44,016 bases of DNA from a phage, in the sequence record PZ379180.1; one strand, given 5' to 3'. A program made the position numbers and the translations under genes. Below, in pieces: positions 3,219-39,553 of this stretch. Below the pieces are notes generated by a model, which was given only the letters and a program-made list of their open reading frames with translations, was not told the origin of the DNA and made no database searches. The number at the start of each line of letters is the position of its first letter. The first letter of the stretch is position 1.

Positions 3219-4046
3219 ATGTTAACTATGAACGGTCAGAATCAGGGTGTTAAGACAAAACACCGGGAATGGCTGCATCACTTCGATAAATGGCAGAAGG
3301 TACGCCACGCTCTTGAAGGCGACCTTATCCGCTATCTGCGTAACGTCGGGAAGAACGAGCCTGACCAGACCTACGCAGCACAGCGACAGGAAGAATACGA
3401 GAACGGCGCTATCTGCTACAATTTCACCAAACGCACGCTGGCGGGGATGACGGGGTCAGTGATGCGCAAAGACCCTGAGCAGATTATCCCGCCTGAACTT
3501 GAGTACCTGTTGCACAACGCGGACGGTTCAGGTGTCGGGCTGTGGCAGCACGCGCAGGATACGCTGATGGAGATTAACTCGATAGGCCGTGGCGGGTTGC
3601 TGGTGGACGCCCCGGAAACAGCCGCAGCAACGGCGGCAGAGCAGAACGCGGGATTATTAAACCCGGTAATCGCATTCTATACCGCGGAGAACATTATCAA
3701 CTGGAGACTCACCCGCATCGGTTCAGTGAACCGCGTGACGATGGTTGTATTGCGTGAGGCATGGGAATACTCGGAACCAGGCGCTGAGTTTGAAACAAAA
3801 TTCGGCGAGCAATACCGCGTCCTTGACCTGATTGACGGTCGCTACCGCCAGCGCATCTACCGCTTCGATGCCGAAGGTGGCGCACAGGATGAAGTAATCG
3901 AAATCTTCCCGGAACTCGGCGAACAGTTGCGCGGTAAAATCCCGTTCACGTTCATTGGCGCAAGCAACAACGACGCCACTATAGACGATGCGCCTTTACT
4001 GCCGTTAGCTGAGCTAAATATAGGACACTTCAGAAATTCGTACTGA
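3219..4046 (+). CDS. portal protein, N-terminal fragment (frame break near 4030-4046)
   Basis: Position after terL; 275 aa ORF ends at TGA 4044-4046 and the next frame continues from 4024. Confidence 0.7.
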   Translation: MLTMNGQNQGVKTKHREWLHHFDKWQKVRHALEGDLIRYLRNVGKNEPDQTYAAQRQEEYENGAICYNFTKRTLAGMTGSVMRKDPEQIIPPELEYLLHNADGSGVGLWQHAQDTLMEINSIGRGGLLVDAPETAAATAAEQNAGLLNPVIAFYTAENIINWRLTRIGSVNRVTMVVLREAWEYSEPGAEFETKFGEQYRVLDLIDGRYRQRIYRFDAEGGAQDEVIEIFPELGEQLRGKIPFTFIGASNNDATIDDAPLLPLAELNIGHFRNSY

Positions 4047-4047
4047 T

Positions 4048-4701
4048 GTGGAAGAGGCCAGCTTTATAGTAGGTCAACCGACACTGTTCATTGCCCCCGG
4101 CGAGAACATGAGCATGGAGCAGTGGAAAGAAGCCAACCCACACGGCATACGCATGGGGTCGCGTTCAGGCCACAACATCGGCTCCGGCGGAAATGCGTTT
4201 CTGGTTCAGGCGGCGGAAACTAACCTCGCCAAACAGAACATGCTGGATAAAGAGAATCAGGCCATCCAGATTGGCGCGCAGCTTATCACCCCGACGCAGC
4301 AAATCACCGCGGAATCGGCCCGCCTGCAACGCGGCGCCGACACGTCAGTCATGGCAACAATAGCACGTAATGTAAGCATGGCGTATACCGATGCGTTGCG
4401 CTGGGTTGCGGGTATGCTTGGGCTTAGTGAAGATACTGAGATTGAGTTCAAGCTGAATATGGAATTCTTCCTGCAACCGATGACCGCTCAGGACCGCGCT
4501 CAGTGGATGGCGGATATTAACGCTGGCCTGCTACCCGCCACCGCTTACTATGCTGCGTTGCGCAAGGCAGGTGTGACTGACTGGACAGATGAGGACATTC
4601 AGAACGCTATTGAAGACGCACCTCTGCCGTTGGGTTCTGTTGCTCAGGTAGCGGGAGAGATTCCGCAGTCGGCGCAGCAACAGGACACCACTCAGCAGTA
4701 A
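4048..4701 (+). CDS. portal protein, C-terminal fragment
   Basis: 217 aa ORF in +1 frame starting 1 nt after the upstream stop; frame open from 4024. Confidence 0.65.
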   Translation: MEEASFIVGQPTLFIAPGENMSMEQWKEANPHGIRMGSRSGHNIGSGGNAFLVQAAETNLAKQNMLDKENQAIQIGAQLITPTQQITAESARLQRGADTSVMATIARNVSMAYTDALRWVAGMLGLSEDTEIEFKLNMEFFLQPMTAQDRAQWMADINAGLLPATAYYAALRKAGVTDWTDEDIQNAIEDAPLPLGSVAQVAGEIPQSAQQQDTTQQ

Positions 4702-6302: not shown

Positions 6303-6596
6303 CTACTTTCCTGCCTCATGCGCAATTCGCGCCTCAGCGATAGAAAGATATTCCGAATCCATCTCAATTCCTATAAAGCGGAAACCTTCGCGCATGGCTG
6401 CTTTACCGGTGCTGCCACTCCCCATAAACGGGTCGAGAACCACTCCACCTGGTGGCGTCACAAGGCGGCAAAGGTACGCCATGAGGTCGGTTGGCTTGAC
6501 GGTGGGATGATTATTGGCCTCTCCTCTGTCCTTGCGGCTCGTTTTAGCGCAGTAGAAGAACCGGGCGGCGCTCTTGTCTGTCTCTACGCGCGGCAC
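6303..6596 (-). CDS. DNA N6-adenine methyltransferase, C-terminal fragment
   Basis: FFYCAK, HPTVKP and DPFMGSGST motifs; its frame is open upstream to about 6752 and reads VPANLIHDGSDEV. Confidence 0.8.
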   Translation of the reverse strand: MPRVETDKSAARFFYCAKTSRKDRGEANNHPTVKPTDLMAYLCRLVTPPGGVVLDPFMGSGSTGKAAMREGFRFIGIEMDSEYLSIAEARIAHEAGK

Positions 6597-7465
6597 ATAC
6601 TGCTTACCGTTGTCACTGGTGGCGCCGTAGCAGTTAGCCCGCGAGCGCTGGCTATCATCGCTTTTTCCCTGCTGACCTTTGGCTTCAGGGAAAGCGGTAA
6701 TAACCTCATCGCTTCCGTCATGAATAAGATTGGCTGGTACCAGCGTCCCAATTCATTGCCAGATTGAGGGCCACATGCGTAGGTTGATTCACTTTTTGCG
6801 GCGTGAAGCTGTCCGCCTTTGATGTTGTCTTTATAAGGTGTTCTTCTGGCCCAAACATCCCCCACCACCCGACACCCATCAATATTAATCGCACCTGTCC
6901 CCCACTCCAGCACGTTAGCCGCGACCGTACCTTTGAACGGCTTGCGGGCTACGGTGATTGGCTCAAGTGCTGGTTTGAGTGCGGTGCCCCAGCCGTTCCA
7001 CTGGCGGGCGGATTCGGTGGCGGGGGAGGCGATGTCAAGCCCTTTGCCGTACTCGCCATAGACGCCACCCGTCGTTGCGGTTGCCTCGCTGCGCCCCACC
7101 ACTTCACGCTCTGCGCCTGCCGCCTTGTCGATAGCCTTGCTCACATCCATACTTTTCGGAAAACCACTACCATATACCCATGCAATCATGTCACGAATCT
7201 CAAAACCAGCGTCCTCAATCCGCACAGCCATGCGGTGCTGGGTGCGAGTGCCTGCGAAGGCCAGTAGGTGACCACCTGGCTTCAGGACACGCAGGCATTC
7301 CTCCCAGATTGCCTGTTCTGGCACATCGTAATCCCACTTTTTACCCATAAACGACAGGCCATAAGGCGGGTCGGTGACTATGCTATCTACGGAATTGTCG
7401 GGAATACCCTTTAATACCTCAAGGCAATTCCCTAGATGAATATTGTATGGTTTAGTATAAGCCAT
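6584..7465 (-). CDS. DNA N6-adenine methyltransferase, N-terminal fragment
   Basis: DPPY motif near N-terminus, GTGAINIDGCRV, GRW; last 50 residues of the ORF are out-of-frame read-through; AGGAGG RBS. Confidence 0.85.
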   Translation of the reverse strand: MAYTKPYNIHLGNCLEVLKGIPDNSVDSIVTDPPYGLSFMGKKWDYDVPEQAIWEECLRVLKPGGHLLAFAGTRTQHRMAVRIEDAGFEIRDMIAWVYGSGFPKSMDVSKAIDKAAGAEREVVGRSEATATTGGVYGEYGKGLDIASPATESARQWNGWGTALKPALEPITVARKPFKGTVAANVLEWGTGAINIDGCRVVGDVWARRTPYKDNIKGGQLHAAKSESTYACGPQSGNELGRWYQPILFMTEAMRLLPLSLKPKVSREKAMIASARGLTATAPPVTTVSSMCRA

Positions 7466-12995: not shown

Positions 12996-13408
12996 TGGGC
13001 TACTTTGAGGACTTAACAAAAGCGTTTGATGTGCCGCTGGTAGCCTTCGGAACCACCAACGGCATCAAGGTAGCGCTTGAAAACATCGACGCGCCGACGT
13101 CAACAGATACGCCGTATCTGGCAAGTTACATGTTGCTGGCGGATACCGAGCAGGCTGACTTATTCTTCACGGAACAACGCGCCGGTGTCTATCAGATAGA
13201 CATTAACTACGCATCGGTGAAAGGTAGCGCGCCAATCAATAAAATGGCAGACTTACTTAACACGGCGTTTAAATCAGGTAAGGCATTTTCGCGTAACGAC
13301 ATCTGCGCCGAGGTTCAATCGGTTAGCCTGGGGCCGCTGATTGTAGAAAACGGATGGGCCAAACGACCATTGTCAATTAACTTTATTGCATTCACCAAGA
13401 GGCTGTGA
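12992..13408 (+). CDS. tail completion/terminator protein (putative)
   Basis: 138 aa ORF between gp10-like and major tail genes. Confidence 0.4.
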   Translation: MMGYFEDLTKAFDVPLVAFGTTNGIKVALENIDAPTSTDTPYLASYMLLADTEQADLFFTEQRAGVYQIDINYASVKGSAPINKMADLLNTAFKSGKAFSRNDICAEVQSVSLGPLIVENGWAKRPLSINFIAFTKRL

Positions 13409-14577
13409 ATATGGCTACAACTCCTTTTAAGGGCGCGAATACCGCGCAATTCTATGTGGCGGAAACTACCCTGGGCGTAACACCGGCTAACCCTGTCTGG
13501 TCGCCGTTGCGTAACACTGGCGGTGTTCCTGCCGTAACCCGCGATGCGCTGACTTCCAACGAACTAGACGGCAGCCGTGAAACTACATCCATCCGAACCG
13601 GTAACAAACAGGTTAGCGGGGAGTACGCCATCGAACTTAGCTCTCGTAGCCAGGATGATTTCCTTGCGGGAGCGATGACTTCTACGTGGCAAGCTGGGGT
13701 AGAGATTACTGGCGCCGAAATTACGGTCGCCCCAGCAGGTAAAACATTCACCCGCGCTGCCGGTAGCTTCATTACTGACGGTGTAGAAGTTGGCGACCTT
13801 ATTGCGTTCACCGACTTAACCGGCGACAACGCAAAACCGTTTATCGTGACCGCGGTTTCCGCTCTGGTAGTTACGGGCGCAGGTATTCAGCACACGCTGA
13901 CAGCAGAGAAAGTAACCACTGACGCAAAAACTGGCGACAAGCTGGAAACCAGTAACGCGTGTAAGACGTTCTCCATCCTGACGTGGTTCAAGGGCCAGTG
14001 TGGTAACCCGGACGCGTACATGCTGACCAAAGGTGTGGAAATCTCTGGCTTTACCGTAGAGCAGGCGGTTAACGCCATGGTCACCGGCAGCTTCCCGTTC
14101 ATCGGCCTGAGTCAGGAGATTCTTACCGCGCCGCCGTCTGGCTCTGATTTCTCTCAGGTTACGTTCACCGATGAGCCGTTCTCGTCGGTAGATGTGTCGG
14201 TGTTCGATGGCTCCACGCCGTTGCGTTGCGATACTCTCACCATCACCAACGACAACGGAGCTTCCGCGCAGTTCGAACTCGGTAACAGTAGCGTGGCGTT
14301 CGTCGAACGTGGACGCGCAGCTAACACATTCTCTATCTCTGGCAAGCTGTACGACATGGCGATGATTCAGAAGTTTATCAACGAGCAGCAGGTAGAGATT
14401 AACTCTATTCTGGCAGGGGTAAACGGGGCTATGTCTTTCAGTTTGAAACGTGCAGAGCTTACGGCGGTTACACCTGAGATTGGTGGGCCTGAGTCAATCA
14501 CTCAGTCCATTGAAGGCCAGGCTACCGGCAATCAGTACCAGTCGTCTATCGTAATTCAACGTATCACCTACGCATAA
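13405..14577 (+). CDS. major tail protein
   Basis: 390 aa ORF preceding chaperone/tape-measure genes, followed by terminator. Confidence 0.65.
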   Translation: MNMATTPFKGANTAQFYVAETTLGVTPANPVWSPLRNTGGVPAVTRDALTSNELDGSRETTSIRTGNKQVSGEYAIELSSRSQDDFLAGAMTSTWQAGVEITGAEITVAPAGKTFTRAAGSFITDGVEVGDLIAFTDLTGDNAKPFIVTAVSALVVTGAGIQHTLTAEKVTTDAKTGDKLETSNACKTFSILTWFKGQCGNPDAYMLTKGVEISGFTVEQAVNAMVTGSFPFIGLSQEILTAPPSGSDFSQVTFTDEPFSSVDVSVFDGSTPLRCDTLTITNDNGASAQFELGNSSVAFVERGRAANTFSISGKLYDMAMIQKFINEQQVEINSILAGVNGAMSFSLKRAELTAVTPEIGGPESITQSIEGQATGNQYQSSIVIQRITYA

Positions 14578-14581
14578 AACT

Positions 14582-14605
14582 AAGGCCCCTTTCGGGGCCT
14601 TTTTC
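14582..14605. terminator. intrinsic terminator between convergent genes
   Basis: AAGGCCCC-tttc-GGGGCCTT hairpin followed by TTTTT. Confidence 0.6.
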
Positions 14606-15160
14606 TTACAAACCTAATTTTAAAGCAATGTCTATAACGTTCGATTTAACGTCACCCGGTATGATGTAGGTGTCGTAATCTTTTACACCACTAACATCGT
14701 ACAGATAGCCACGGCTATCGCAGATGAACGTATAGCCGTCACGATGGAGGCGGACGATTCGCACGTCATGCCCCGCGGCGACGATAGGGGCAACTTCACT
14801 GGCGAATCCACCATCGGACACTACAAAAACTTCGTCGCCGTCAGGCAAGTTTTCAGCAAGATACTTACCGAAATAATCATCGCCGAATACCGGTTTAATG
14901 AATTGCTCAGAAATGGCAATCATTAACCGGCGGCGGGACAACCCATTAAGAAAACCCTCGGGTTTTTCTTTCCGCGCCCGGTCGTCGTAGCCGTCGAGAA
15001 ATTCGTGGTAAGCATCCTGGCCTAACGCTGCCAAAGCAATATTGAACATTGGATTCTTGAAACTGGTAGTTCCTTTCGCAAAGCCCATTTCTACCAGCGC
15101 CATAGCAAGCGTGTCTTTCCCGCAACCCGCAGGGCCATTAAGAATAATTACCTTAGCCAT
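14606..15160 (-). CDS. deoxynucleoside monophosphate kinase (T4 gp1-like P-loop kinase)
   Basis: P-loop GPAGCGKDT and following PMFNIALAALG segment recalled as similar to T4 dNMP kinase. Confidence 0.55.
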   Translation of the reverse strand: MAKVIILNGPAGCGKDTLAMALVEMGFAKGTTSFKNPMFNIALAALGQDAYHEFLDGYDDRARKEKPEGFLNGLSRRRLMIAISEQFIKPVFGDDYFGKYLAENLPDGDEVFVVSDGGFASEVAPIVAAGHDVRIVRLHRDGYTFICDSRGYLYDVSGVKDYDTYIIPGDVKSNVIDIALKLGL

Positions 15161-15648
15161 TATTTATCGCTCCCGTGTGGTTTTAAGTGTGTAGAGTTCC
15201 CGTTACAGTCGTATTCGGTAACTGCGTGTGCGGTTATGCCGAGGTCACGGAAATGCTTTATTACCGCTGGAGAGTCGTCGAACGCACACAAGATTCTTTC
15301 CAGTCCGAAAGCACGCAACACCTCTTCTTTAATTACGATGTCTTTTCTGTTGTCGTGTTTGCTGCGCATGATTAGCGTGTCAAACCTAACGTTATTCTCT
15401 CGTAACCATTCGCGAGTCTCCTCCTCAGCGTCATCACTTCGCCCGGTAAGGATAATTATAGTAAGTCCGGAATGCCACAGTACGCTACACAAATGGATAT
15501 TGTCGTATATCGGAGCGTCATCTTTGCAGGCCATGTTAAATGGCTTCCACGCCCACGTTTCTCCGTAGTTATCTTTTGGTAACAGGTGTAAGCGATGGGT
15601 ACCGTCTACCAATGTCCCGTCTAAATCGAAAATTACAATATCTTTCAT
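15160..15648 (-). CDS. HAD-family phosphatase
   Basis: N-terminal FDLDGTLVD motif (DxDGT); start overlaps upstream gene stop. Confidence 0.6.
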   Translation of the reverse strand: MKDIVIFDLDGTLVDGTHRLHLLPKDNYGETWAWKPFNMACKDDAPIYDNIHLCSVLWHSGLTIIILTGRSDDAEEETREWLRENNVRFDTLIMRSKHDNRKDIVIKEEVLRAFGLERILCAFDDSPAVIKHFRDLGITAHAVTEYDCNGNSTHLKPHGSDK

Positions 15649-16775
15649 CCCAGCATCTCCGGTGAAATAGTTAAACGTGCGACCTCGCCATATTCGGCGC
15701 TATAAGTAATTACATTTGCACTGCGGCCCGACATCCATCCGCCGCGAGAGGCGTAGGCGTCTTTAGCCGCTAAGGTGCGGTGTTGCTCAACAATCATGTT
15801 ACGGCTTTCTACAATCTTCTGGTGGTGCAGATGGCCTACGTGGGCGTAGCTGTAAACACTCTCGCCGAACGCTTTACGGAACTTGGCAATCATAACCGGT
15901 TCGATAGCGTCGAATCGTGCTTTATGCCCGTGATGGAAGAACAGCGTCGTTTTGCCGTGTTGCACCATCTTGTAAACATCCGGCGACGTATCGACGAATA
16001 CACGAGGCTCGTTGTCGTACAGTGTGCTGAACATCTCCGCCAGCCAAATCATCCCGGATTCGTCGTGGTTCCCCTGAACTATAAGCAAGCGAACAGTTTT
16101 ATGCTTAACCAGAGCCATATCAACAACACGGCGGACCATGCGAATCATGTAGCGGACAAGTTTCTGGTAACGCGTGTCGGCGTCAAGGACATGACCACTC
16201 GCCGGTGTAACGGTGTCAAGACTATCGAAGTGAGCTAAGTCGCCAAGAAGATTAATAACCCCCGTACCTGCATCCGGTGCTTTCTGAAACGCAGCATCAA
16301 ACCAACGAGAGAATAAGTCCTCCGCGATTTTCATATCCCAGTCGTCGCCGCTCTCGTCAGCCCAGGCTAACATACCGAGATGGAAATCAGATACCGTGTA
16401 AAGATTGAGTAGTTTATCGTCACGTTTGGCTCGTGCCGGTTTAACAGGCGCAACGGGCGTAATCTCTGACTTCATGCCCTCTATTACGGCTTTCATCAAT
16501 TCAACCTGACGTTCGGCATCAGCGTCGGTCTTAACCCATTGCAACTTAGTGTTGCCGAACTCGTCCACCAGGGACGACGTTCCTTTAATCTTGTAACCGT
16601 CTGGTACAAGGTGACTAACGTCGCGCCCGTGGCCTACGCCTTTCTTAGCCAGCTTCGCTTTACGGATTCGGATAACGCGGTCTGAGATTCCGTATTTACG
16701 GGCGATATCGATATTCTTCATCCCGGCGTTCAATTCTTCCTGTAATTGCTCGTCGGTTATTTTCTTCTGGGCCAT
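15645..16775 (-). CDS. calcineurin-like metallophosphoesterase with N-terminal HTH
   Basis: Motifs DFHLG, LLGDLAHFD, QGNHDE, FFHHGH, GHLHH; N-terminal ARKYGISDRVIRIRKAKL; ATG at 16775 with GAGGAAG RBS (track ORF to 16880). Confidence 0.65.
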   Translation of the reverse strand: MAQKKITDEQLQEELNAGMKNIDIARKYGISDRVIRIRKAKLAKKGVGHGRDVSHLVPDGYKIKGTSSLVDEFGNTKLQWVKTDADAERQVELMKAVIEGMKSEITPVAPVKPARAKRDDKLLNLYTVSDFHLGMLAWADESGDDWDMKIAEDLFSRWFDAAFQKAPDAGTGVINLLGDLAHFDSLDTVTPASGHVLDADTRYQKLVRYMIRMVRRVVDMALVKHKTVRLLIVQGNHDESGMIWLAEMFSTLYDNEPRVFVDTSPDVYKMVQHGKTTLFFHHGHKARFDAIEPVMIAKFRKAFGESVYSYAHVGHLHHQKIVESRNMIVEQHRTLAAKDAYASRGGWMSGRSANVITYSAEYGEVARLTISPEMLG

Positions 16776-16813
16776 GCTTACTTCCTCGTGTTTAGGATTT
16801 GTCTTATAGTAGC

Positions 16814-17032
16814 CTACTTCTCTTTCACGTTCGAGTTGCAAGCCCAGATTAAAATGAATACCCACGGCAACAGAATCCACCCGAGAAATAAGTTAGCCAT
16901 GAATATCGCCAGCTTTGCTTTATGGTTACGCATATGTGCCACCAAAAACGGGATAAAATAAACGGCTACAAAAATAATTAAGAAGAACATAGTGATACCG
17001 GTCATAACATAACTCCTGATTTGAGATAACAT
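16814..17032 (-). CDS. superinfection immunity-like small membrane protein
   Basis: 72 aa, two TM helices, YFIPFLVAHMRNHKAKLAIFMANLFLGW recalled as resembling Imm-superinfection family. Confidence 0.45.
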   Translation of the reverse strand: MLSQIRSYVMTGITMFFLIIFVAVYFIPFLVAHMRNHKAKLAIFMANLFLGWILLPWVFILIWACNSNVKEK

Positions 17033-17034
17033 CG

Positions 17035-17063
17035 TTGGTGTAAGTGAATAGTACGCTATTATA
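17035..17063 (+). promoter_or_regulatory. promoter-like element with AATAG-N4-CTATT palindrome
   Basis: TTGGTG-16-TATTAT with palindrome 17047-17060 in spacer; minus strand reads TATAAT at 17058-17063. Confidence 0.45.
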
Positions 17064-17183
17064 TTGGGGAGTGCAAGTAGTGTGCTAGAATAATTTTGCG
17101 CCTAGTGTCGCACACGAAAAGCGGGTGGTTCCCGTCTGGCGCATTTCCTTTAACCAGTAACCTCTTAACCAAAGGATTAAAGA

Positions 17184-17600
17184 ATGAAACTTTCTGATTT
17201 TTATTACGAAGCGGAAGCCGAAAAGGGCGCACGTATGCCGATACCGCTAAAAGACGGTACTGATTCCGGGGAATGGCTTAATGTTGTTTCTCCTGAGGCG
17301 GACGTTGCCGTTAAGGCTATGCGCGCGTTCACCCTTGCATACCGGGCAGTATTAGGGAAATTAAAACCGCTTCGTGATAAGTGCGAAGAGATGAAAGATT
17401 TCTCTGAATACAACCTGAAGATGGAAGACGCGGCGACGGACCTTAACCGTCAGTTAGCGATTGAATTGGTTAACGGGTGGAGCCTTGACGACGAATTCAA
17501 TAAAGAGAATCTGAACACACTCCTGACGCAATATAAACGACTCGCGGAACTTGTTGTTGTGTTTCATAACGAACAACTGCACCAGCTACAGGAAAAGTAG
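17184..17600 (+). CDS. tail assembly chaperone (G-like)
   Basis: 138 aa acidic ORF immediately upstream of tape measure gene; -1 frame open 17570-17767. Confidence 0.5.
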   Translation: MKLSDFYYEAEAEKGARMPIPLKDGTDSGEWLNVVSPEADVAVKAMRAFTLAYRAVLGKLKPLRDKCEEMKDFSEYNLKMEDAATDLNRQLAIELVNGWSLDDEFNKENLNTLLTQYKRLAELVVVFHNEQLHQLQEK

Positions 17601-17748: not shown

Positions 17749-17964
17749 ATGCCCCCTGAGCTACTAACCACATTTGAGAAGTACAGGGAAATTAAATTCA
17801 CCCGCCGAGTGGACGACGACGGCATCAAGATGTACCCGCGCGAGCAATTACGATGGTCAGATTTAGTGGCGTACAGCACCGTTTCAGGCCAGAATATAGG
17901 GATGTTCGAATCCGACATCATCATGAGCTTAGACGCTATTTTCGAGGGTAGAAACGATGGCTGA
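17749..17964 (+). CDS. hypothetical protein, possibly distal part of chaperone frameshift extension
   Basis: 71 aa ORF overlapping tape measure start; frame open from 17683. Confidence 0.3.
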   Translation: MPPELLTTFEKYREIKFTRRVDDDGIKMYPREQLRWSDLVAYSTVSGQNIGMFESDIIMSLDAIFEGRNDG

Positions 17965-19036
17965 TGTAGCTAGTTTAGTAGTAAAAGTAACAGAGCAAGG
18001 CGCGAAAGCCACATCAGACCGTCTTGACAACCTTTCAAAGTCCGCAAAAGTAGCGGGGGCCGCCGTAGCAGGCCTTGCTTCTATCGTAGCGGCTACCGCG
18101 TATAAAGCTGCCCAAGAACTGGTTGACTCACAGCGGCAACTGGACAAGATGTCCGCCAGTTTGAAGACCTTAACAGGAAGTACCCAAGGTGCTAAACAGG
18201 CGCTAAGTATCCTGCAAGATTTTGCCCGCGATACCCCATACGGACTGGAGCAGGCGGTGGAAGGCTTCCGTAAGCTGGTGGCCCTTGGCCTTACCCCATC
18301 CGAGGAGGCGTTGCGGTCCTACGGCAATACCGCATCGGCTATGGGCAAGGACCTTAATCAGATGATTGAGGCGGTAGCCGACGCCAGTACGTTTGAGTTC
18401 GAACGCCTAAAAGAATTCGGCATCAAAGCCAAGCAGAACAAAAACGACGTAGAGTTTACATTCCAGGGGACAACAACCGTAGTTAAGAAAAGCGCTGCCG
18501 ATATTGAGCAGTATTTACTTAATATTGGTAACGTAAATTTTGCCGGTGCCATGGCGGACCAGGCCAACACCCTTAATGGCGCTATCGCGAGCGCCAGTGA
18601 CTCATGGTCGCAGCTAAAAATGACGCTTGCCACCAGTCTTGATGTTGGCGCACTTGCGGAACCTATCAGGTATATCAATGACTTGATCCAGGAATTAAAT
18701 GCGTCTGTTGCTTCCGGTGAATTAGCCGCTGAAATGCAGATGTGGGGGAACATCGCGTCGGAAGTAGGAAGCGCTATCGAGATGTCATTCGACGCTGCGT
18801 TTGGCTTTGTTGGCGATGCCATCAACGGGCTTAATGAACTGTGGGATTTCAGCAGCAAGAGTATTACGGATAGCGGAGAACAAACGGCTACTACCATCGC
18901 TGAATCCACCGCCGATGCGCTTGACTTCATCGCGGAAGAGTTCACCGCGATGGAGAGATTCTTTGAAGATATGGTTAAAGGCGCGCAGGACGCGGGCCGT
19001 CTTGTACGAGCCGCTTTTACCCCAGGGAATCAGTAG
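17957..19036 (+). CDS. tape measure protein, fragment 1
   Basis: Ala/Gln-rich helical 359 aa ORF after chaperone; frame breaks between 18979 and 19036. Confidence 0.75.
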   Translation: MADVASLVVKVTEQGAKATSDRLDNLSKSAKVAGAAVAGLASIVAATAYKAAQELVDSQRQLDKMSASLKTLTGSTQGAKQALSILQDFARDTPYGLEQAVEGFRKLVALGLTPSEEALRSYGNTASAMGKDLNQMIEAVADASTFEFERLKEFGIKAKQNKNDVEFTFQGTTTVVKKSAADIEQYLLNIGNVNFAGAMADQANTLNGAIASASDSWSQLKMTLATSLDVGALAEPIRYINDLIQELNASVASGELAAEMQMWGNIASEVGSAIEMSFDAAFGFVGDAINGLNELWDFSSKSITDSGEQTATTIAESTADALDFIAEEFTAMERFFEDMVKGAQDAGRLVRAAFTPGNQ

Positions 19037-19074
19037 ACGTAGCTAAAAATATCAACTTCCAGCTTGGCCTGGCT

Positions 19075-19371
19075 TTGGATACCCAGCGCGATGTCGCCGA
19101 CGTTACGCGTAAAAGTTTCCGCGAACAGGTAGAAGCTCAACAGGATATTGTAGCGTTAAAACGCGCGGCGTATGACATCGATAAGGAGTCCGCAAAAGCT
19201 GAGGGGTTAAACAAATTTAAGGTAACCGGAACTGGCGGCGGTTCTGACGATGACGGGTCAGCCGCAAAAGCTGCTAAGAAAGCGGCGGACGCGTTCGAGC
19301 GCCAGAAAAAGCGGCGGAAGACTTCTACTATCAGTCAATCCATCTTAATGATGACGTATTTCAGAAAATAG
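19075..19371 (+). CDS. tape measure protein, fragment 2
   Basis: -1 frame open from 18979 to 19371; breaks at A5 run 19306-19310. Confidence 0.6.
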   Translation: MDTQRDVADVTRKSFREQVEAQQDIVALKRAAYDIDKESAKAEGLNKFKVTGTGGGSDDDGSAAKAAKKAADAFERQKKRRKTSTISQSILMMTYFRK

Positions 19372-19400
19372 AAGCTAACCAGGAAGAGCAACTGTCTAAG

Positions 19401-20294
19401 TTGCAGGATTTTTATAGCAATAAGCTTCTTAGCGACCAACAGTACGAAAACGCCAAGACGCAGATTATGCTCTCTGCCGAACAGGCCCGCCAGGAAGAAC
19501 TGGACAAGAAAAGGAAAGAAGCCCAGGAGAAGCAGCAGAAAGGTGATGATTTCATGGCTCAGATTATGGGCCAGAACGCCACCGAGCTTGAGCTTCTGGA
19601 TATTCAGGAACAGCAGAAACTGGCGGTAGCCGATAAGTACCAGGAACAAGGTCTGATTAGCGAGAAGCAGTATCAGGCCGCGCTTAACGCCATCAACGAG
19701 CAGTACGCAACCAAGCGTGCCGACGCAACGGCAACAGCTTTCGGTAACATGGCTTCAAACATCGGGTCTGCGTTGGGCGAGGCTTCTGGTGCGTACAAGG
19801 CATTCGCTATCGTACAGGCCACTATAGCCACGTACACCGCAGCTATCGAGGCGTACAAGTCAACGGCTGCTATCCCTGTAGTCGGTCCGTTCCTGGCCCC
19901 AGTAGCCGCTGCTGCTGCTGTTGGGGCCGGTATGGCGCAGATTTCCGCTATCAGGTCAGCACGTGAACAGGGTGGACAGTTATCCGCCGGGCAGGCTTCC
20001 ACCATCGCCGAACGCGGTAAACCTGAGGTAATTATGCCGGCGGGGGCGTCGCGAGTACGCACCGCGCAACAAATGAAAGAGATTATGGGCCAAAACGGGT
20101 CTTCTTCCGGCCCATCTAATGTTACTATCGTAAACAACACGAGTTCGCAAATCGGCAACGTATCCACCGAGCAGGATGATGAAGGCCGTCTGCGTATCAT
20201 CATAGAAGAGCAAGTTGCTGCATCTTTGCAGAACAGCAACAGTAAGATTAGCAAGGCCCGCAAGGCCACAAGAAACGCGCCGGGGTTTAAATAA
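19401..20294 (+). CDS. tape measure protein, fragment 3
   Basis: Frame open from 19278; Q/E-rich coiled coil and hydrophobic AAIPVVGPFLAPVAAAAAVGAG segment. Confidence 0.7.
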   Translation: MQDFYSNKLLSDQQYENAKTQIMLSAEQARQEELDKKRKEAQEKQQKGDDFMAQIMGQNATELELLDIQEQQKLAVADKYQEQGLISEKQYQAALNAINEQYATKRADATATAFGNMASNIGSALGEASGAYKAFAIVQATIATYTAAIEAYKSTAAIPVVGPFLAPVAAAAAVGAGMAQISAIRSAREQGGQLSAGQASTIAERGKPEVIMPAGASRVRTAQQMKEIMGQNGSSSGPSNVTIVNNTSSQIGNVSTEQDDEGRLRIIIEEQVAASLQNSNSKISKARKATRNAPGFK

Positions 20295-29982: not shown

Positions 29983-30114
29983 TCATTCCAGCACCCACAG
30001 ATAAATTGTTACTAACATACCTAATACGGCAACCATCATGCCGTATTGACCCTCGTGACAGTAGACACCGGCGGCGAATCCCGCCAGTACCGCAATAATC
30101 AGTTTACTTGGCAT
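29983..30114 (-). CDS. small membrane peptide (43 aa)
   Basis: Hydrophobic ORF MPSKLIIAVLAGFAAGVY..., below track cutoff. Confidence 0.25.
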   Translation of the reverse strand: MPSKLIIAVLAGFAAGVYCHEGQYGMMVAVLGMLVTIYLWVLE

Positions 30115-31492
30115 ATCGCTTCATCTCCGCACCTTCAGCTACAAGAGGGAACCCCTCCGCCCATTCCGGCAATTCGCACATCAACCGCTCAAGCTCTGCT
30201 ACATTGTATTCCGGTGAATCTGGTGTCTCGCAGATAATCTCATCGTGTACGTGAAGTACAATCGGGTAGCCGTTTGCTTCTACGTTCAGCAGGGCATTAG
30301 CCAGCAAATCACGGCACAATGCCTGAGTGCAGTTTTCCACCAGTTTACCCGAGTAGGTGTACTGGAACCCCCACTGACGGGTTAGCTGATTTTCGCCCTG
30401 GTACTTAATGCGCACGTTAGTAGACACCTTCCCGTCTCCATCTGTTTCTTTCGACACGCTCAACCCGACGCCCGGATAAGACATAACGCGACCCGACGGC
30501 AACGTCATGCGCAACCACCAACCAGCGACTTTGTTGCCGTTGTTGTCCGTTTCTACGTTACGCGAAAACTTAACACCCCGCGGTCCCGCAGTGAACTCTT
30601 TACCTGGATTGCGGATAGCCGCCATAGCCGCGTCTTCAATATCACGCCAGAAAGCTACTGTTTCCGGGTGTGACTCACGCCACATGCGCTTGATAGCGTC
30701 GCAGGTACGCCACACTTTCTTATCAAGAATATACGATGGTCGGTCATCCTTTTCACCTGGCCGCGGAGGTCGCTTGGCTTCCTGAATACGTGCCCATTCA
30801 TAGCCGCGTGCAGTAGCGGCCCATATATGGTTGGGGAATGTCCCGTCCATTGTTTTTGCCATATCAACCAGGTTTAAGCCGAGGTTCTTAGCAAACTGAA
30901 CGAAAGCACCGACACCACCAGCATAGCCAAGGCCCAATTCACATGCTTTACCTATCTGGCGTAGGTCACTACGGCTTTCGAGAATGTAATCAGGGTCCAT
31001 GCCGAACATCTTACCCGCGGTTACACAGTAAATATCCAATCCCGCACGGAAGGTATCGAGAGCGGTTTCTTCTCCCGCCAGCCATGCCAACCCGCGACCT
31101 TCAACGTTAGAGTAATCAGCTACGACAAACTTACGCCCGGCTTCCGGTATGATGCAGCTACGCACCGTCGATGCCGTTAGCTTGGCTACATCGAAACGGC
31201 GATGCGCGCGGCCTTTAAACAACAGGTCGATTCCGTAGGACAATGGGTGTGTTACCCTCCACCAGTCCTTCTCTGACATCCAGTCATAACGTACTTTCTT
31301 CTTTTTATTCTTCGGGTCGTCATGATAGTACCCGCGCGCCAGGTTCTGTGGCTGGAAGCCTTTACCCGCGAACCGTAACGTACGCTTTGCCCCACCGTAC
31401 TGGATACAACCGCGGCGTCGGTCGTCCGACGAGCGGCCTAACAGCAGCGGGTTATATTTCGTGGACGCTGTTGACGCGGCCCCGAGGCGCAT
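30104..31492 (-). CDS. DNA polymerase family A, polymerase-domain fragment
   Basis: Motif A VADYSNVEGRGLAWLAG, motif B RQIGKACELGLGYAGG, motif C LHVHDEIICE. Confidence 0.85.
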   Translation of the reverse strand: MRLGAASTASTKYNPLLLGRSSDDRRRGCIQYGGAKRTLRFAGKGFQPQNLARGYYHDDPKNKKKKVRYDWMSEKDWWRVTHPLSYGIDLLFKGRAHRRFDVAKLTASTVRSCIIPEAGRKFVVADYSNVEGRGLAWLAGEETALDTFRAGLDIYCVTAGKMFGMDPDYILESRSDLRQIGKACELGLGYAGGVGAFVQFAKNLGLNLVDMAKTMDGTFPNHIWAATARGYEWARIQEAKRPPRPGEKDDRPSYILDKKVWRTCDAIKRMWRESHPETVAFWRDIEDAAMAAIRNPGKEFTAGPRGVKFSRNVETDNNGNKVAGWWLRMTLPSGRVMSYPGVGLSVSKETDGDGKVSTNVRIKYQGENQLTRQWGFQYTYSGKLVENCTQALCRDLLANALLNVEANGYPIVLHVHDEIICETPDSPEYNVAELERLMCELPEWAEGFPLVAEGAEMKRYAK

Positions 31493-32370
31493 TTCGATAA
31501 TCGTGCGGGCGTCGTCAGGTAAATCATCATCGGTACCAGCAGGTCATTCAGCGTCGACTTCTGTGCGTTGTGTATGCGGTGTGCGGGGGCCAGTTCACGT
31601 AGAATAGGCAGAAAGTCCTTACCGGTAAGCGAGCCGCCGTATTTACGTTGAGCTTCTTCCTGTAACTGTGCCTTGTGCTTCTCTACGGCTTCAATCGCGG
31701 CTTCCGCCAGTGCGACGTCAACCTTAAATCCGCGGTCGTTGATTAACTGGTCAAGTTCCAGTACACGGTCTTCGAACTCGGAGTTACCCCAACGCGGCAG
31801 CTTATGGAAGACTTCACGCATCGCAGTGATGTCGCTCACGGCGTACCTGATGAACATCGCCCACTCGTCAGGGTGAGTTTCTGCGGTGTAGCGGCGGATT
31901 TTGTAGTTCTTCGGCGTCGGTTTAGAGAAACGCTTAATCAGAGCCTTGCCGCGTTTATCTTTCGCGTTGTCTGCAGACACGCCCAGCACTTCGCACAGCG
32001 CATCAAGAGAACCCGGCAGCGCGTGACGGAACGCCCAAATCATAGTATCAATGGTGTTACTTACCGGAATATCAAAGCCCCAGCAGTGTTTCATGATTAG
32101 GCGATCGAAAAGTCCACCGTTGTGCCATACCATCTTAATGCGACTGTTTGGCTTAACCAGACGGCGTAGAGCGCGGTGTAAATCCACGGGCATATCACTG
32201 CCGTCGGTGCAATCCCATACCTGTACAGGCTCGTCGTCAAAAGCGTAGGTACAGATAAGCACTTCGGTAGTTGGATGCTCGGCGTAAGCATAGGAGCCGA
32301 CTTTCTTCAAATCGGCTTCGGAGAATGTTTCAAAGTCTAAGTAAAGCAATGTGTTCATAGTCTGTACCAC
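31438..32370 (-). CDS. DNA polymerase family A, 3'-5' exonuclease-domain fragment
   Basis: Exo I motif LYLDFETFS; ORF overlaps the polymerase fragment by 55 nt in another frame. Confidence 0.8.
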   Translation of the reverse strand: MVQTMNTLLYLDFETFSEADLKKVGSYAYAEHPTTEVLICTYAFDDEPVQVWDCTDGSDMPVDLHRALRRLVKPNSRIKMVWHNGGLFDRLIMKHCWGFDIPVSNTIDTMIWAFRHALPGSLDALCEVLGVSADNAKDKRGKALIKRFSKPTPKNYKIRRYTAETHPDEWAMFIRYAVSDITAMREVFHKLPRWGNSEFEDRVLELDQLINDRGFKVDVALAEAAIEAVEKHKAQLQEEAQRKYGGSLTGKDFLPILRELAPAHRIHNAQKSTLNDLLVPMMIYLTTPARLSKCASGPRQQRPRNITRCC

Positions 32371-33447: not shown

Positions 33448-33603
33448 TTAAGCATATTGGTACGGTTCGAACTCATCCTCTACAGGGTAGTATCGCATCA
33501 TGGTACCGTTCAAGAACGTGAACGATTCCGAGTGTAGATACCCATCCCAGTGCCATACCATCAAAAAATCTTTATCAGTCGGCATTTCATTTACTTGAAT
33601 CAT
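33448..33603 (-). CDS. hypothetical protein
   Basis: ATG at 33603 with AGGAGG RBS (track ORF 33448..33633). Confidence 0.35.
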   Translation of the reverse strand: MIQVNEMPTDKDFLMVWHWDGYLHSESFTFLNGTMMRYYPVEDEFEPYQYA

Positions 33604-33920
33604 TCTAAATCCTCCTCTGTAACTTGATTCCACTCAGGACGTTTGTCATCCGCCGTTGCGACGCATGGCGCACCGGGCTTACGGGTAATGAAGTCTTTCA
33701 GTTCTTCTTCCGGTACAATTTTAACCGCTTCGGTCGGTGTCATAAGAACTACCTTTTGCAGCATAGTACCGTACTTCTCGAATACTGCATCGGTATCTTT
33801 CCACGCACGATTACCCGGGCGTCCTTCAACCAGTTTATACCCCGGCACTTTCTTACCGGAATGTAACGCAGCAGCCATAGCTTTCTCAACCTTGTCGATG
33901 TGCTGGCGCAACAACGGCAA
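33600..33920 (-). CDS. C-terminal part of Cas4-like nuclease (frame open up to about 34093)
   Basis: Same frame upstream encodes CQWCRFSEQC cysteine triad; C-terminus TEEDLE. Confidence 0.5.
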   Translation of the reverse strand: MPLLRQHIDKVEKAMAAALHSGKKVPGYKLVEGRPGNRAWKDTDAVFEKYGTMLQKVVLMTPTEAVKIVPEEELKDFITRKPGAPCVATADDKRPEWNQVTEEDLE

Positions 33921-34084
33921 CTTCTCATACTCAGCTACGAGTTGCTCTGGCGTAAGCTCAAGTGCAAAGTCGTCCTCCAGTTCTTCCGCCAGCCCCGCGT
34001 TAACGGTTTTTGTACGCGCTGCGCATTGTTCAGAGAACCGACACCACTGACAACCATCTACCGACGGCTTGAAGTCCGACGCTT

Positions 34085-34840
34085 TCAGGTTCTTTTACCC
34101 CGGAAATAGGCATCAAGAGCCAACAGCGCCCGTTTCTGTGCAAACTTAGCGAACAGTTCCAGACCTTCAACCGAGATGTCCCACTCCGATGCACCGCCAG
34201 CGTACGGCTGGAAGATGACCAGTCGAACGGTTGTTATGCTATAACGTCTCTTGAGTCGGCGATAAACGCCGAGAGCATAAAGCATAAGCTGCTTGTTTTC
34301 TTTCGCTTCGACACGATGCCGCCCGGTTTTCAGGTCGCAGATGATAAGCATGTGTTCGTCGGTGTTAGCCAGTTCCTGTATGGCAACAAGGTCAGCAGTT
34401 CCGAACGTCTCAACGCCTTCATACCCCGGATGCAATACCTCAGTAAGATTAACACGCATTTCCAGCTTGGCGTAAGTCGCTATATCGATAATCGCCTTGC
34501 AGTAGTCGGTGTACTTGCGCACCTGCTCAATCATGTCCGCCGTAATCAGTACCGCGCCTTTCATCGGGCTGATTAGTGCCTTAATCTGGCCTTTGCCTTC
34601 ATCCAGCACGTAAGCACCGACTTCACGCTCTAACGGCAGCGCAGTTCCGCGAATATAAGCGTTGAGATGGACCTCAGCTATGGTGTGCATTGCCGTGCCT
34701 AATACAGCGGCTTTACCTGACGTGTTAGGGGTATCTTTTTCACAGGCCAGTGATGCCGCGCAACTTAGCCACTTTTTAGCCCCTGACGGCGACAGTAAGG
34801 CATGTACATCGTTATTGCCGCCGCGTTCTTTAAGAATCAT
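34085..34840 (-). CDS. PD-(D/E)xK nuclease, Cas4/RecB-like (N-terminal part)
   Basis: ICDLKTG (D-x-K) and QLMLYALG (Q-x-x-x-Y) motifs; N-terminal Cys. Confidence 0.6.
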   Translation of the reverse strand: MILKERGGNNDVHALLSPSGAKKWLSCAASLACEKDTPNTSGKAAVLGTAMHTIAEVHLNAYIRGTALPLEREVGAYVLDEGKGQIKALISPMKGAVLITADMIEQVRKYTDYCKAIIDIATYAKLEMRVNLTEVLHPGYEGVETFGTADLVAIQELANTDEHMLIICDLKTGRHRVEAKENKQLMLYALGVYRRLKRRYSITTVRLVIFQPYAGGASEWDISVEGLELFAKFAQKRALLALDAYFRGKRT

Positions 34841-39119: not shown

Positions 39120-39353
39120 TTATTCCAGGTCTTCTAAAGTAGCGGTAATCCCGCGAACTTCAGCAAAGGCACTATATTTCCCGCCAACATTTTTCACGAC
39201 GCCAGATTTAACCAGCACTTTTAACGACCCTTCAATAATGACGGAACTATAGTACTTAAAATAACTACGGCGCAAGTCGATAACACTGCATGACCCTTTT
39301 TTACGTGTTAACGAAACGACCGCCGTAAATACGCGTGACTGGAACTCTGTCAT
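39120..39353 (-). CDS. hypothetical protein
   Basis: 77 aa ORF, C-terminus LEDLE. Confidence 0.4.
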   Translation of the reverse strand: MTEFQSRVFTAVVSLTRKKGSCSVIDLRRSYFKYYSSVIIEGSLKVLVKSGVVKNVGGKYSAFAEVRGITATLEDLE

Positions 39354-39553
39354 TTCACATTCTCCTTAATCCACGCTTCCACTTTCTCTGGGTCAAACGT
39401 ACCTGGCTGACGACGGCCCATAATGCGAATACAGCAATCAGGGAACTTCCCACTCTTTAGCCAGTTATTCAGCGTTCGACGAGTAACCCCAATACGCTCA
39501 GCTACCTCATTCTGCGTCATTCTCAAACCCTCATTATCAGTTAACGGAATCAA
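39350..39553 (-). CDS. HTH DNA-binding regulator (AlpA/Xis-like, putative)
   Basis: MTQNEVAERIGVTRRTLNNWLK helix-turn-helix; first gene of leftward operon. Confidence 0.55.
   Translation of the reverse strand: MIPLTDNEGLRMTQNEVAERIGVTRRTLNNWLKSGKFPDCCIRIMGRRQPGTFDPEKVEAWIKENVK

Follow-up and report, generated by a model that had tools for sequence, protein, structure and literature searches.

The phage DNA analysed here (sequence record PZ379180.1; 44,016 nt, the whole of which is called the window below) carries an island of four intact genes on the minus strand inside its tail gene cluster, with the tail tube gene on one side and the tail assembly chaperone gene on the other. The island encodes a deoxynucleoside monophosphate (dNMP) kinase related to T4 gp1, a HAD phosphatase related to the phosphatase domain of T4 PseT, a metallophosphoesterase (MPE) with an N-terminal helix-turn-helix (HTH), and a small membrane protein of the Imm superinfection immunity family. 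The genes of the island and its two neighbours are as follows.

13405-14577, plus strand: tail tube protein (PF18906, 9e-38)
14606-15160, minus strand: T4 gp1-type (deoxy)nucleoside monophosphate kinase, 184 amino acids (aa), assigned from open reading frame (ORF), profile and fold
15160-15648, minus strand: stand-alone HAD phosphatase of the T4 PseT (Pnkp) 3'-phosphatase type, 162 aa
15645-16778, minus strand: N-terminal HTH plus predicted binuclear MPE of the Mre11/SbcD/PolD-DP1 type, 377 aa (longest ORF to 16880)
16814-17005, minus strand: Imm-family superinfection immunity membrane protein, 63 aa (longest ORF to 17032)
17184-17600: tail assembly chaperone (PF08748)

Gene organization of the island

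An initial annotation, made from the sequence without database searches, had proposed four opposite-strand genes inside the tail cluster, and this is the arrangement found between the PF18906 and PF08748 genes; all four of its family calls also survived the profile and structure comparisons described below, the Pfam Metallophos model itself scoring under its gathering threshold. It had further described the MPE, HAD and kinase genes as translationally coupled, in agreement with the overlaps ATGA (MPE stop and HAD start) and TAATG (HAD stop and kinase start). The likely start of the MPE gene is the ATG at 16778, with GAGGAAG ahead of it, giving a product of 376-377 aa (relatives are annotated with 376 aa); that of the imm gene is the ATG at 17005, with AGGAG at 17017-17013 ahead, and the same 63-aa coding sequence (CDS) is annotated in relatives. 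The island proteins are conserved across hundreds of phage records and the genes are therefore real, not chance ORFs. The GC content of the island (0.482) shows only a slight dip from that of the window (0.511).

Of the 433 phage records matched by the 4.6 kb around the island, 308 are of Salmonella phages; the 4.6 kb is 93-98% identical to the complete genomes of Escherichia phages SHAK7858, BEU33, phiEc4 and Golestan; its identity to K1ind1-3 is about 86-88%. Since Golestan is classified in Guernseyvirinae, Kagunavirus, the window is a Kagunavirus genome.

Family and fold assignment of the island proteins

The MPE matches phrog_704 ("DNA repair exonuclease") at 3e-167 and belongs to a family of 4650 clusters at 50% identity in a representative search, which supplied the diversity of homologues, the first search having given only near-identical proteins. 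All five MPE motifs (DxH, GD, GNH, H and GHxH) are present and are invariant among 43 diverse members with 31-49% identity, in which D131, H133, G179, D180, N237, H238, H283, G315 and H318 are invariant and H316 nearly so. In the structure model (predicted local distance difference test, pLDDT, 90) a three-helix HTH occupies residues 9-45, a beta-hairpin plus helix residues 62-105 and the catalytic domain residues 120-377, which supports the earlier description of an HTH-fused MPE. A PDB sequence search returned only HTH noise and fold comparison alone was informative: the scores were 15.8 for DP1, 15.2 for Mre11 and 15.0 for SbcD versus 13.9 for LpxH and 13.5 for MJ0936, a small margin. By this modest margin, a nuclease is the best reading of the modelled fold. 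The phage protein differs from Mre11, SbcD and archaeal PolD DP1 in carrying the N-terminal HTH and beta-hairpin module, not a capping domain, and in being only ~13-18% identical to them, with no Pfam match above gathering. A further difference from Mre11 and SbcD is the partner: no Rad50/SbcC ATPase is annotated in Golestan or adjoins the MPE gene at any locus examined.

The HAD protein matches PF25109 (HAD_PNKP) at 1.7e-19 with 70.8 bits against a cut-off of 27.6, and phrog_415 at 6e-64. Its PDB sequence matches are Pnkp1 (4xrp) and the phosphatase domain of T4 Pnkp (1ltq/5uj0); BLASTP aligned it with residues 162-300 of T4 PseT (E 2e-9), including DxDGT, R19, (S/T)GR, RKD..KEE and DD, so that the catalytic Asp, Arg and Lys are all kept, and tblastn with the HAD protein reached the pseT genes of many T4-like phages. 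Judged by its sequence, the protein is a stand-alone PseT-type phosphatase and a true homologue of the Pnkp phosphatase domain. It shares with T4 PseT (Pnkp; 1LTQ) the DxDGT HAD fold with its Asp pair, two Arg and the aligned RKD..KEE and DD motifs, and differs from it in being 162 aa long without a fused polynucleotide kinase domain, the adjoining kinase being of the gp1 type. No Pnkp-type polynucleotide 5'-kinase domain, fused or associated with the HAD protein, was found, and the partner RNA ligase of the T4 system is not annotated in the close relative Golestan.

The kinase and T4 gp1 (from NC_000866) fall into the same PHROG, phrog_139 (3e-44 for the kinase, 1.8e-65 for gp1), while Pfam detected only a P-loop, which is of the G-x-G-K-D-T type and is followed by a gp1-like core fold. 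In the AlphaFold model (pLDDT 94, built from 35 homologues) T4 gp1 (1DEK) was the top match by two structure-comparison methods, one of them Foldseek, and T4 Pnkp appeared in neither match list; the initial call of a T4 gp1-like dNMP kinase family thus rests on both profile and fold. A PDB sequence search gave only P-loop noise, and hhalign of the kinase family against the single T4 gp1 and PseT sequences aligned the P-loop region only, with no discrimination between the two. Differences from T4 gp1 are considerable: the island kinase has 184 aa versus 241 aa and is about 20% identical, sequence-level alignment reaches only the N-terminal 37 columns, and the phage that carries it gives no sign of DNA of the hydroxymethylcytosine type found in T4. 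The genomic company of the family was surveyed in 42 dereplicated loci with 83 immediate neighbours, nearly all of them loci of distant homologues without a detected HAD gene. The neighbours include dUTPase (8), dCTP deaminase-like proteins (4), dCMP deaminase, RNR, SHMT, NT5C and DUF4406, as well as T7-type DNA ligase (9) and RNA polymerase (6). The dUTPase, deaminase and RNR neighbourhoods favour a role of the kinase family in nucleotide metabolism, and by analogy the island kinase would be expected to act on dNMPs. T4 gene 1 likewise lies among virion genes (57A, 1, 3, 2, 4), a parallel to the odd placement of the island.

The Imm protein matches PF14373 at 1.8e-13 (50.6 bits, cut-off 27.9) and phrog_1039 at 3e-24, and two hydrophobic segments are visible in its 63 aa, so that the Imm-like membrane protein of the initial annotation stands. 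It resembles T4 Imm in these respects (small size, two hydrophobic segments, a Pfam score above gathering), and differs in being a 63-aa protein of a siphovirus in which its role is predicted, and in going undetected in some close relatives: it is 63-100% identical among the Kagunavirus contigs where it was detected and was not detected in 4 of 16 (L015, L019, L021 and L022).

Conservation and synteny

The MPE gene was found in 2053 phage records and occupies the island site in every Guernseyvirinae locus examined. Within the Kagunavirus contigs the MPE is 94-99% identical, the HAD protein 82-99% and the kinase 82-100%. At the same opposite-strand site Jerseyvirus SETP7 has imm, an 88%-identical MPE and a 76-aa ORF, and SE126_1NRH has imm, a 55%-identical MPE, an HNH gene, a small ORF and the anti-repressor gene ant; both lack HAD and kinase. 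Kagunavirus K-01 keeps the HAD gene and has two small ORFs where the kinase would be, with no kinase annotated in the island. The MPE gene belongs to the conserved core; between it and the terminator, on its downstream side, lies a slot with variable cargo, of which three examples are:

L091, 3631-3861: 76-aa ORF of SETP7
L092, 3674-5199: HNH, small ORF and Ant of SE126_1NRH
L094, 1507-1874: two small ORFs of K-01

Outside Guernseyvirinae the MPE occurs without HAD and kinase in Dhillonvirus Envy, beside terminase genes, and in Drexlerviridae phage tiwna, between Dam and holin; in Rhizobium phage 16-3 it lies three genes (about 1.2 kb) upstream of an HD 5'-dNMP phosphatase. In a 2026 survey it was present in 508 of 522 Drexlerviridae, the commonest genes directly after it were annotated as "polynucleotide kinase" and "dNMP kinase", and a run "DNA repair exonuclease - PNK - dNMP kinase" was noted upstream of the lysis cassette, for which the authors guessed a part in nucleotide supply (PMC13164509). 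That run consists of the same three families in the same order; we found the order MPE-HAD-kinase again in Drexlerviridae-like contigs and in Vibrio phage JSF38, at 40-57% identity. The Kagunavirus cassette differs in its location, on the opposite strand within the tail module behind imm and not between Dam and holin. HAD and kinase genes also stand together away from the MPE, and in T7-like contigs. The HAD-kinase pair recurs as a unit, in many cases but not in all with the MPE attached.

These distributions divide the earlier suggestion of a moron-like acquisition. It may suit Imm and the HAD-kinase pair, which behave as variable cargo with the patchy presence of a moron, and fails for the MPE and hence for the island as a whole, since the MPE is core at this site across Guernseyvirinae and persistent in Drexlerviridae (PMC13164509). 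Two diverged alleles were also seen, the Dhillonvirus MPE (L002, 3992-5134), 76% identical to that of Kagunavirus, and the MPE of the Salmonella Guernseyvirinae-like phage (L092, 2504-3658), which has only the 55%-identical allele at the same site; their sequences suggest allelic exchange of this gene between siphovirus lineages.

Terminator and candidate promoter

Two elements may delimit an island transcript:

14582-14601, both strands: predicted bidirectional intrinsic terminator common to the tail tube gene (plus) and the island (minus), from hairpin and folding
17048-17076, minus strand: candidate sigma-70-type island promoter, -35 TTGCAC, 17-nt spacer, -10 TACTAT

The hairpin at 14582-14601 has an 8-bp stem with 6 GC pairs and T-runs on either strand, folds with dG of -19.9 and -15.4 kcal/mol (z -4.95 and -3.82), and was equalled by none of 200 shuffled sequences; it should be a good, strong bidirectional terminator. 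The island had been described as flanked by terminators, and this was upheld on the 3' side only. On the 5' side, the minus-strand candidate upstream of imm (hairpin plus CTTTTC, 17134-17116; z -0.7) was no better than shuffles and more probably reflects the plus-strand int-alpA motif described further below, of which it is the complement.

The candidate promoter was not called by an automatic promoter scan; we infer it from its match to the consensus only. Its hexamers and spacing are kept in the alignment with Jerseyvirus SETP7 (TTGCAT, 17 nt, TATTAT), and a conserved sigma-70-like site suggests transcription by the host polymerase. A perfect TATAAT at 17063-17058 was rejected as the -10 element, being not kept in Jerseyvirus and lacking a properly spaced -35. 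As to the promoter and terminator of its own that a moron would have, the island thus has a strong predicted terminator and a conserved, consensus-like candidate promoter site.

Proposed function of the island

We propose, with moderate confidence, that the island is a self-contained operon of DNA and nucleotide metabolism that would process DNA ends and recycle the breakdown products of host DNA to deoxynucleoside triphosphates (dNTPs). This proposal is made because the kinase is gp1-like, the HAD protein PseT-like and the MPE nearest to nucleases, because the order MPE-HAD-kinase recurs, and because kinase homologues lie beside genes of dNTP metabolism. The last point also fits the nucleotide-pool role put forward in the initial annotation. 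From the observed gene structure, family and fold assignments, conserved catalytic residues, conservation pattern and synteny, we infer the substrates, the direction of flow, the timing of expression and the use of host DNA as follows. Host RNA polymerase would start at a promoter belonging to the island, transcribe in the direction opposite to the late tail genes around it and stop at the bidirectional terminator. The PseT-type phosphatase would remove 3'-phosphates from DNA ends (or from 3'-dNMPs or pdNp) and so unblock the ends; the Mre11/SbcD-type nuclease, with its binuclear (Mn2+) site and tethered by its HTH, would digest DNA, most plausibly host DNA, to 5'-dNMPs; and the gp1-type kinase would turn the 5'-dNMPs into deoxynucleoside diphosphates, toward dNTPs for phage replication. 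Imm would probably block superinfecting phages. In such a scheme the MPE would be the core, and Imm and the phosphatase-kinase pair optional boosters, the pair in the cargo slot downstream. The scheme has an analogue in T4, in which gp46/47 (Rad50/Mre11) and gp1 recycle host DNA. Indirect support comes from the sensitivity of Guernseyvirinae to Ec2ApeA, the activation of which is ascribed in a preprint to pdNG dinucleotides derived from host DNA breakdown.

Several observations weigh against a salvage operon. Most Jerseyviruses, Dhillonvirus and many Drexlerviridae have the MPE without the other two genes, and K-01 has the HAD gene without the kinase, so the trio is not an obligate unit. The MPE scores under gathering for both Pfam Metallophos and Metallophos_2, and a phage with canonical bases is not strictly in need of a dNMP kinase of its own. 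Our literature search gave only annotations for these genes in Guernseyvirinae or T1-like phages (no experimental work) and found no documentation of host DNA degradation by Kagunavirus. In a rival reading there is no joint pathway: the MPE would be a core nuclease serving transactions of the phage DNA (recombination, SbcD-like clean-up of hairpins and ends, or the processing of concatemers or replication intermediates), and HAD and kinase would be unrelated cargo in a permissive slot before the terminator. The stronger conservation of the MPE relative to HAD and kinase across Kagunavirus, its persistence in Drexlerviridae, its solitary occurrence beside terminase genes in Dhillonvirus and beside lysis genes in tiwna, and the filling of the slot in other Guernseyvirinae by a 76-aa ORF, by HNH and Ant, or by small ORFs in place of the kinase all fit such an arrangement. 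We nevertheless think it less likely than the salvage operon, since random cargo is not expected to recur in this way: the order MPE-HAD-kinase, its stop and start codons overlapping, was seen in three or more distant phage backgrounds that differ in the context of the MPE; the missing annotation of a Rad50/SbcC partner in Golestan also speaks against an SbcD-like enzyme of this kind.

The end-healing module offered in the initial annotation is weakened by these results and is a weaker rival of the salvage operon, unlikely in our opinion. Here the gp1-like kinase would act as a polynucleotide 5'-kinase and form a two-subunit Pnkp with the PseT-type 3'-phosphatase, and the MPE would supply 2',3'-cyclic phosphodiesterase activity or nuclease trimming, so that RNA or DNA cleaved by defence nucleases of the host (3'-P and 5'-OH ends) would be repaired. 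The HAD protein is indeed a true homologue of the Pnkp phosphatase domain by sequence, the tight pairing and coupling of HAD and kinase in four phage backgrounds resembles the kinase-phosphatase architecture of Pnkp, and in the bacterial Pnkp/Hen1 system Pnkp heals ends with a calcineurin-type phosphoesterase. However, the kinase is gp1-like and not Pnkp-like, its homologues without HAD are placed among genes of dNTP metabolism, the MPE is closest to DNA nucleases, and no RNA or DNA ligase was found among the 78 annotated CDS of Golestan or in the scanned ORFs of the window (some small ORFs were not scanned). A bolder variant, about as unlikely, dispenses with the ligase: a dNMP-kinase fold would have displaced the classical Pnkp kinase in a two-subunit polynucleotide kinase-phosphatase which, with the HTH-Mre11-like nuclease, would form a ligase-independent end-processing machine; the attenuator idea for int-alpA given below is separate from it. 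If true, this machine would enable these siphoviruses to withstand, or to exploit, host nucleases whose products have 3'-phosphate and 5'-OH ends. It is very unlikely that the MPE, and perhaps the HAD protein, are anti-defence hydrolases that destroy nucleotide-based signals of host immunity (cyclic oligonucleotides or other second messengers, for example): the top folds of the MPE are nucleases, its N-terminal HTH points to DNA as the substrate, counter-defence genes are not usually so extremely conserved or a persistent part of the core, and neither a PADLOC match nor supporting literature was found. NCBIfam and PADLOC searches of the island proteins gave nothing useful, and a literature search on defence escape by these phages yielded nothing beyond annotations. 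The connection with a modified base and the two DNA methyltransferases of the window, also raised initially, is the least probable of all, and we rejected it for want of supporting genes. T4 gp1 does exist to phosphorylate hydroxymethyl-dCMP, according to the annotation note of the T4 record, so an island that supplies or excludes a non-canonical nucleotide could be imagined. Both methyltransferases, though, are DNA enzymes of the ordinary post-replicative N6/N4 and C5 kinds, and no hypermodification gene (dCMP hydroxymethylase, thymidylate-synthase homologue, DpdA/Que or glycosyltransferase) is annotated in Golestan, while Jerseyviruses lack kinase and HAD and K-01 lacks an annotated kinase in the island.

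The cassette is an ordinary one, already annotated in dozens of Kagunavirus genomes and commented on in Drexlerviridae (PMC13164509), and every part of it belongs to a known family. Its interest lies in the HTH-MPE, which is among the most persistent genes of Drexlerviridae, Dhillonvirus and Guernseyvirinae, three large groups of coliphages used in therapy and defence-system screens, and for which no experimental study was found in the literature, and in the repeated association of a phosphatase of the PseT type with a kinase of the gp1 type, which poses a simple testable question: salvage or end healing. Degradation and recycling of host DNA by these phages would also bear on their detection by sensors of breakdown products such as ApeA.

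The int-alpA RNA motif next to the island

The late operon resumes after the island with a structured leader:

17095-17159, plus strand: int-alpA RNA motif (Rfam RF02996) in the leader of the chaperone/tape-measure operon, bordering the island and outside its operon

The match scores 36.6 bits versus a gathering threshold of 35.8, covers the full model (1-71) and has an E value of 4.8e-6 for the region; the Jerseyvirus copies score below the Rfam gathering threshold, and the core sequence is invariant between Kagunavirus and Jerseyvirus. The motif ends 25 nt upstream of the chaperone start, and a plus-strand TTGGGG-16-TAGAAT site would begin transcripts at the base of its outer stem. Because the motif ends in a U-rich tract, the RNA could be a leader attenuator. 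A 67-aa HTH_17 (excisionase/AlpA-like) protein is encoded at 39350-39553 on the minus strand, annotated in Golestan as "excisionase and transcriptional regulator", and is a speculative candidate for the int-alpA partner; such an AlpA/HTH_17-type protein could let late tail transcription restart downstream of the island via the int-alpA attenuator. A short ORF at 17059-17232 (minus strand), for which some relatives list a hypothetical protein (SHAK7858, for instance, with 114 nt), shares sequence with both the motif and the region of divergent promoters and is probably not a gene.

Other features of the window

A second opposite-strand insertion, encoding an N6/N4 DNA methyltransferase, was seen in the head module at 6584-7465 (minus strand), where Golestan has two small hypothetical genes; it looks like a further variable cargo slot.

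The island genes are intact, whereas four other genes of the window are frameshifted relative to Golestan: the tape measure gene (17957-20294) is split into three frames, and the DNA polymerase (30104-32370), PD-(D/E)XK exonuclease (33603-34840) and portal (3219-4674) genes into two frames each. The split genes are 93-99% identical to those of Golestan, and the frame splits are probably indel errors of assembly and not biology.

The GenBank taxonomy lines of two related records look wrong: OR594183.1 (SHAK7858) is listed under Autographiviridae/Kayfunavirus and PV052270.1 (SE126_1NRH) under Rountreeviridae, and both genomes are collinear with Guernseyvirinae.

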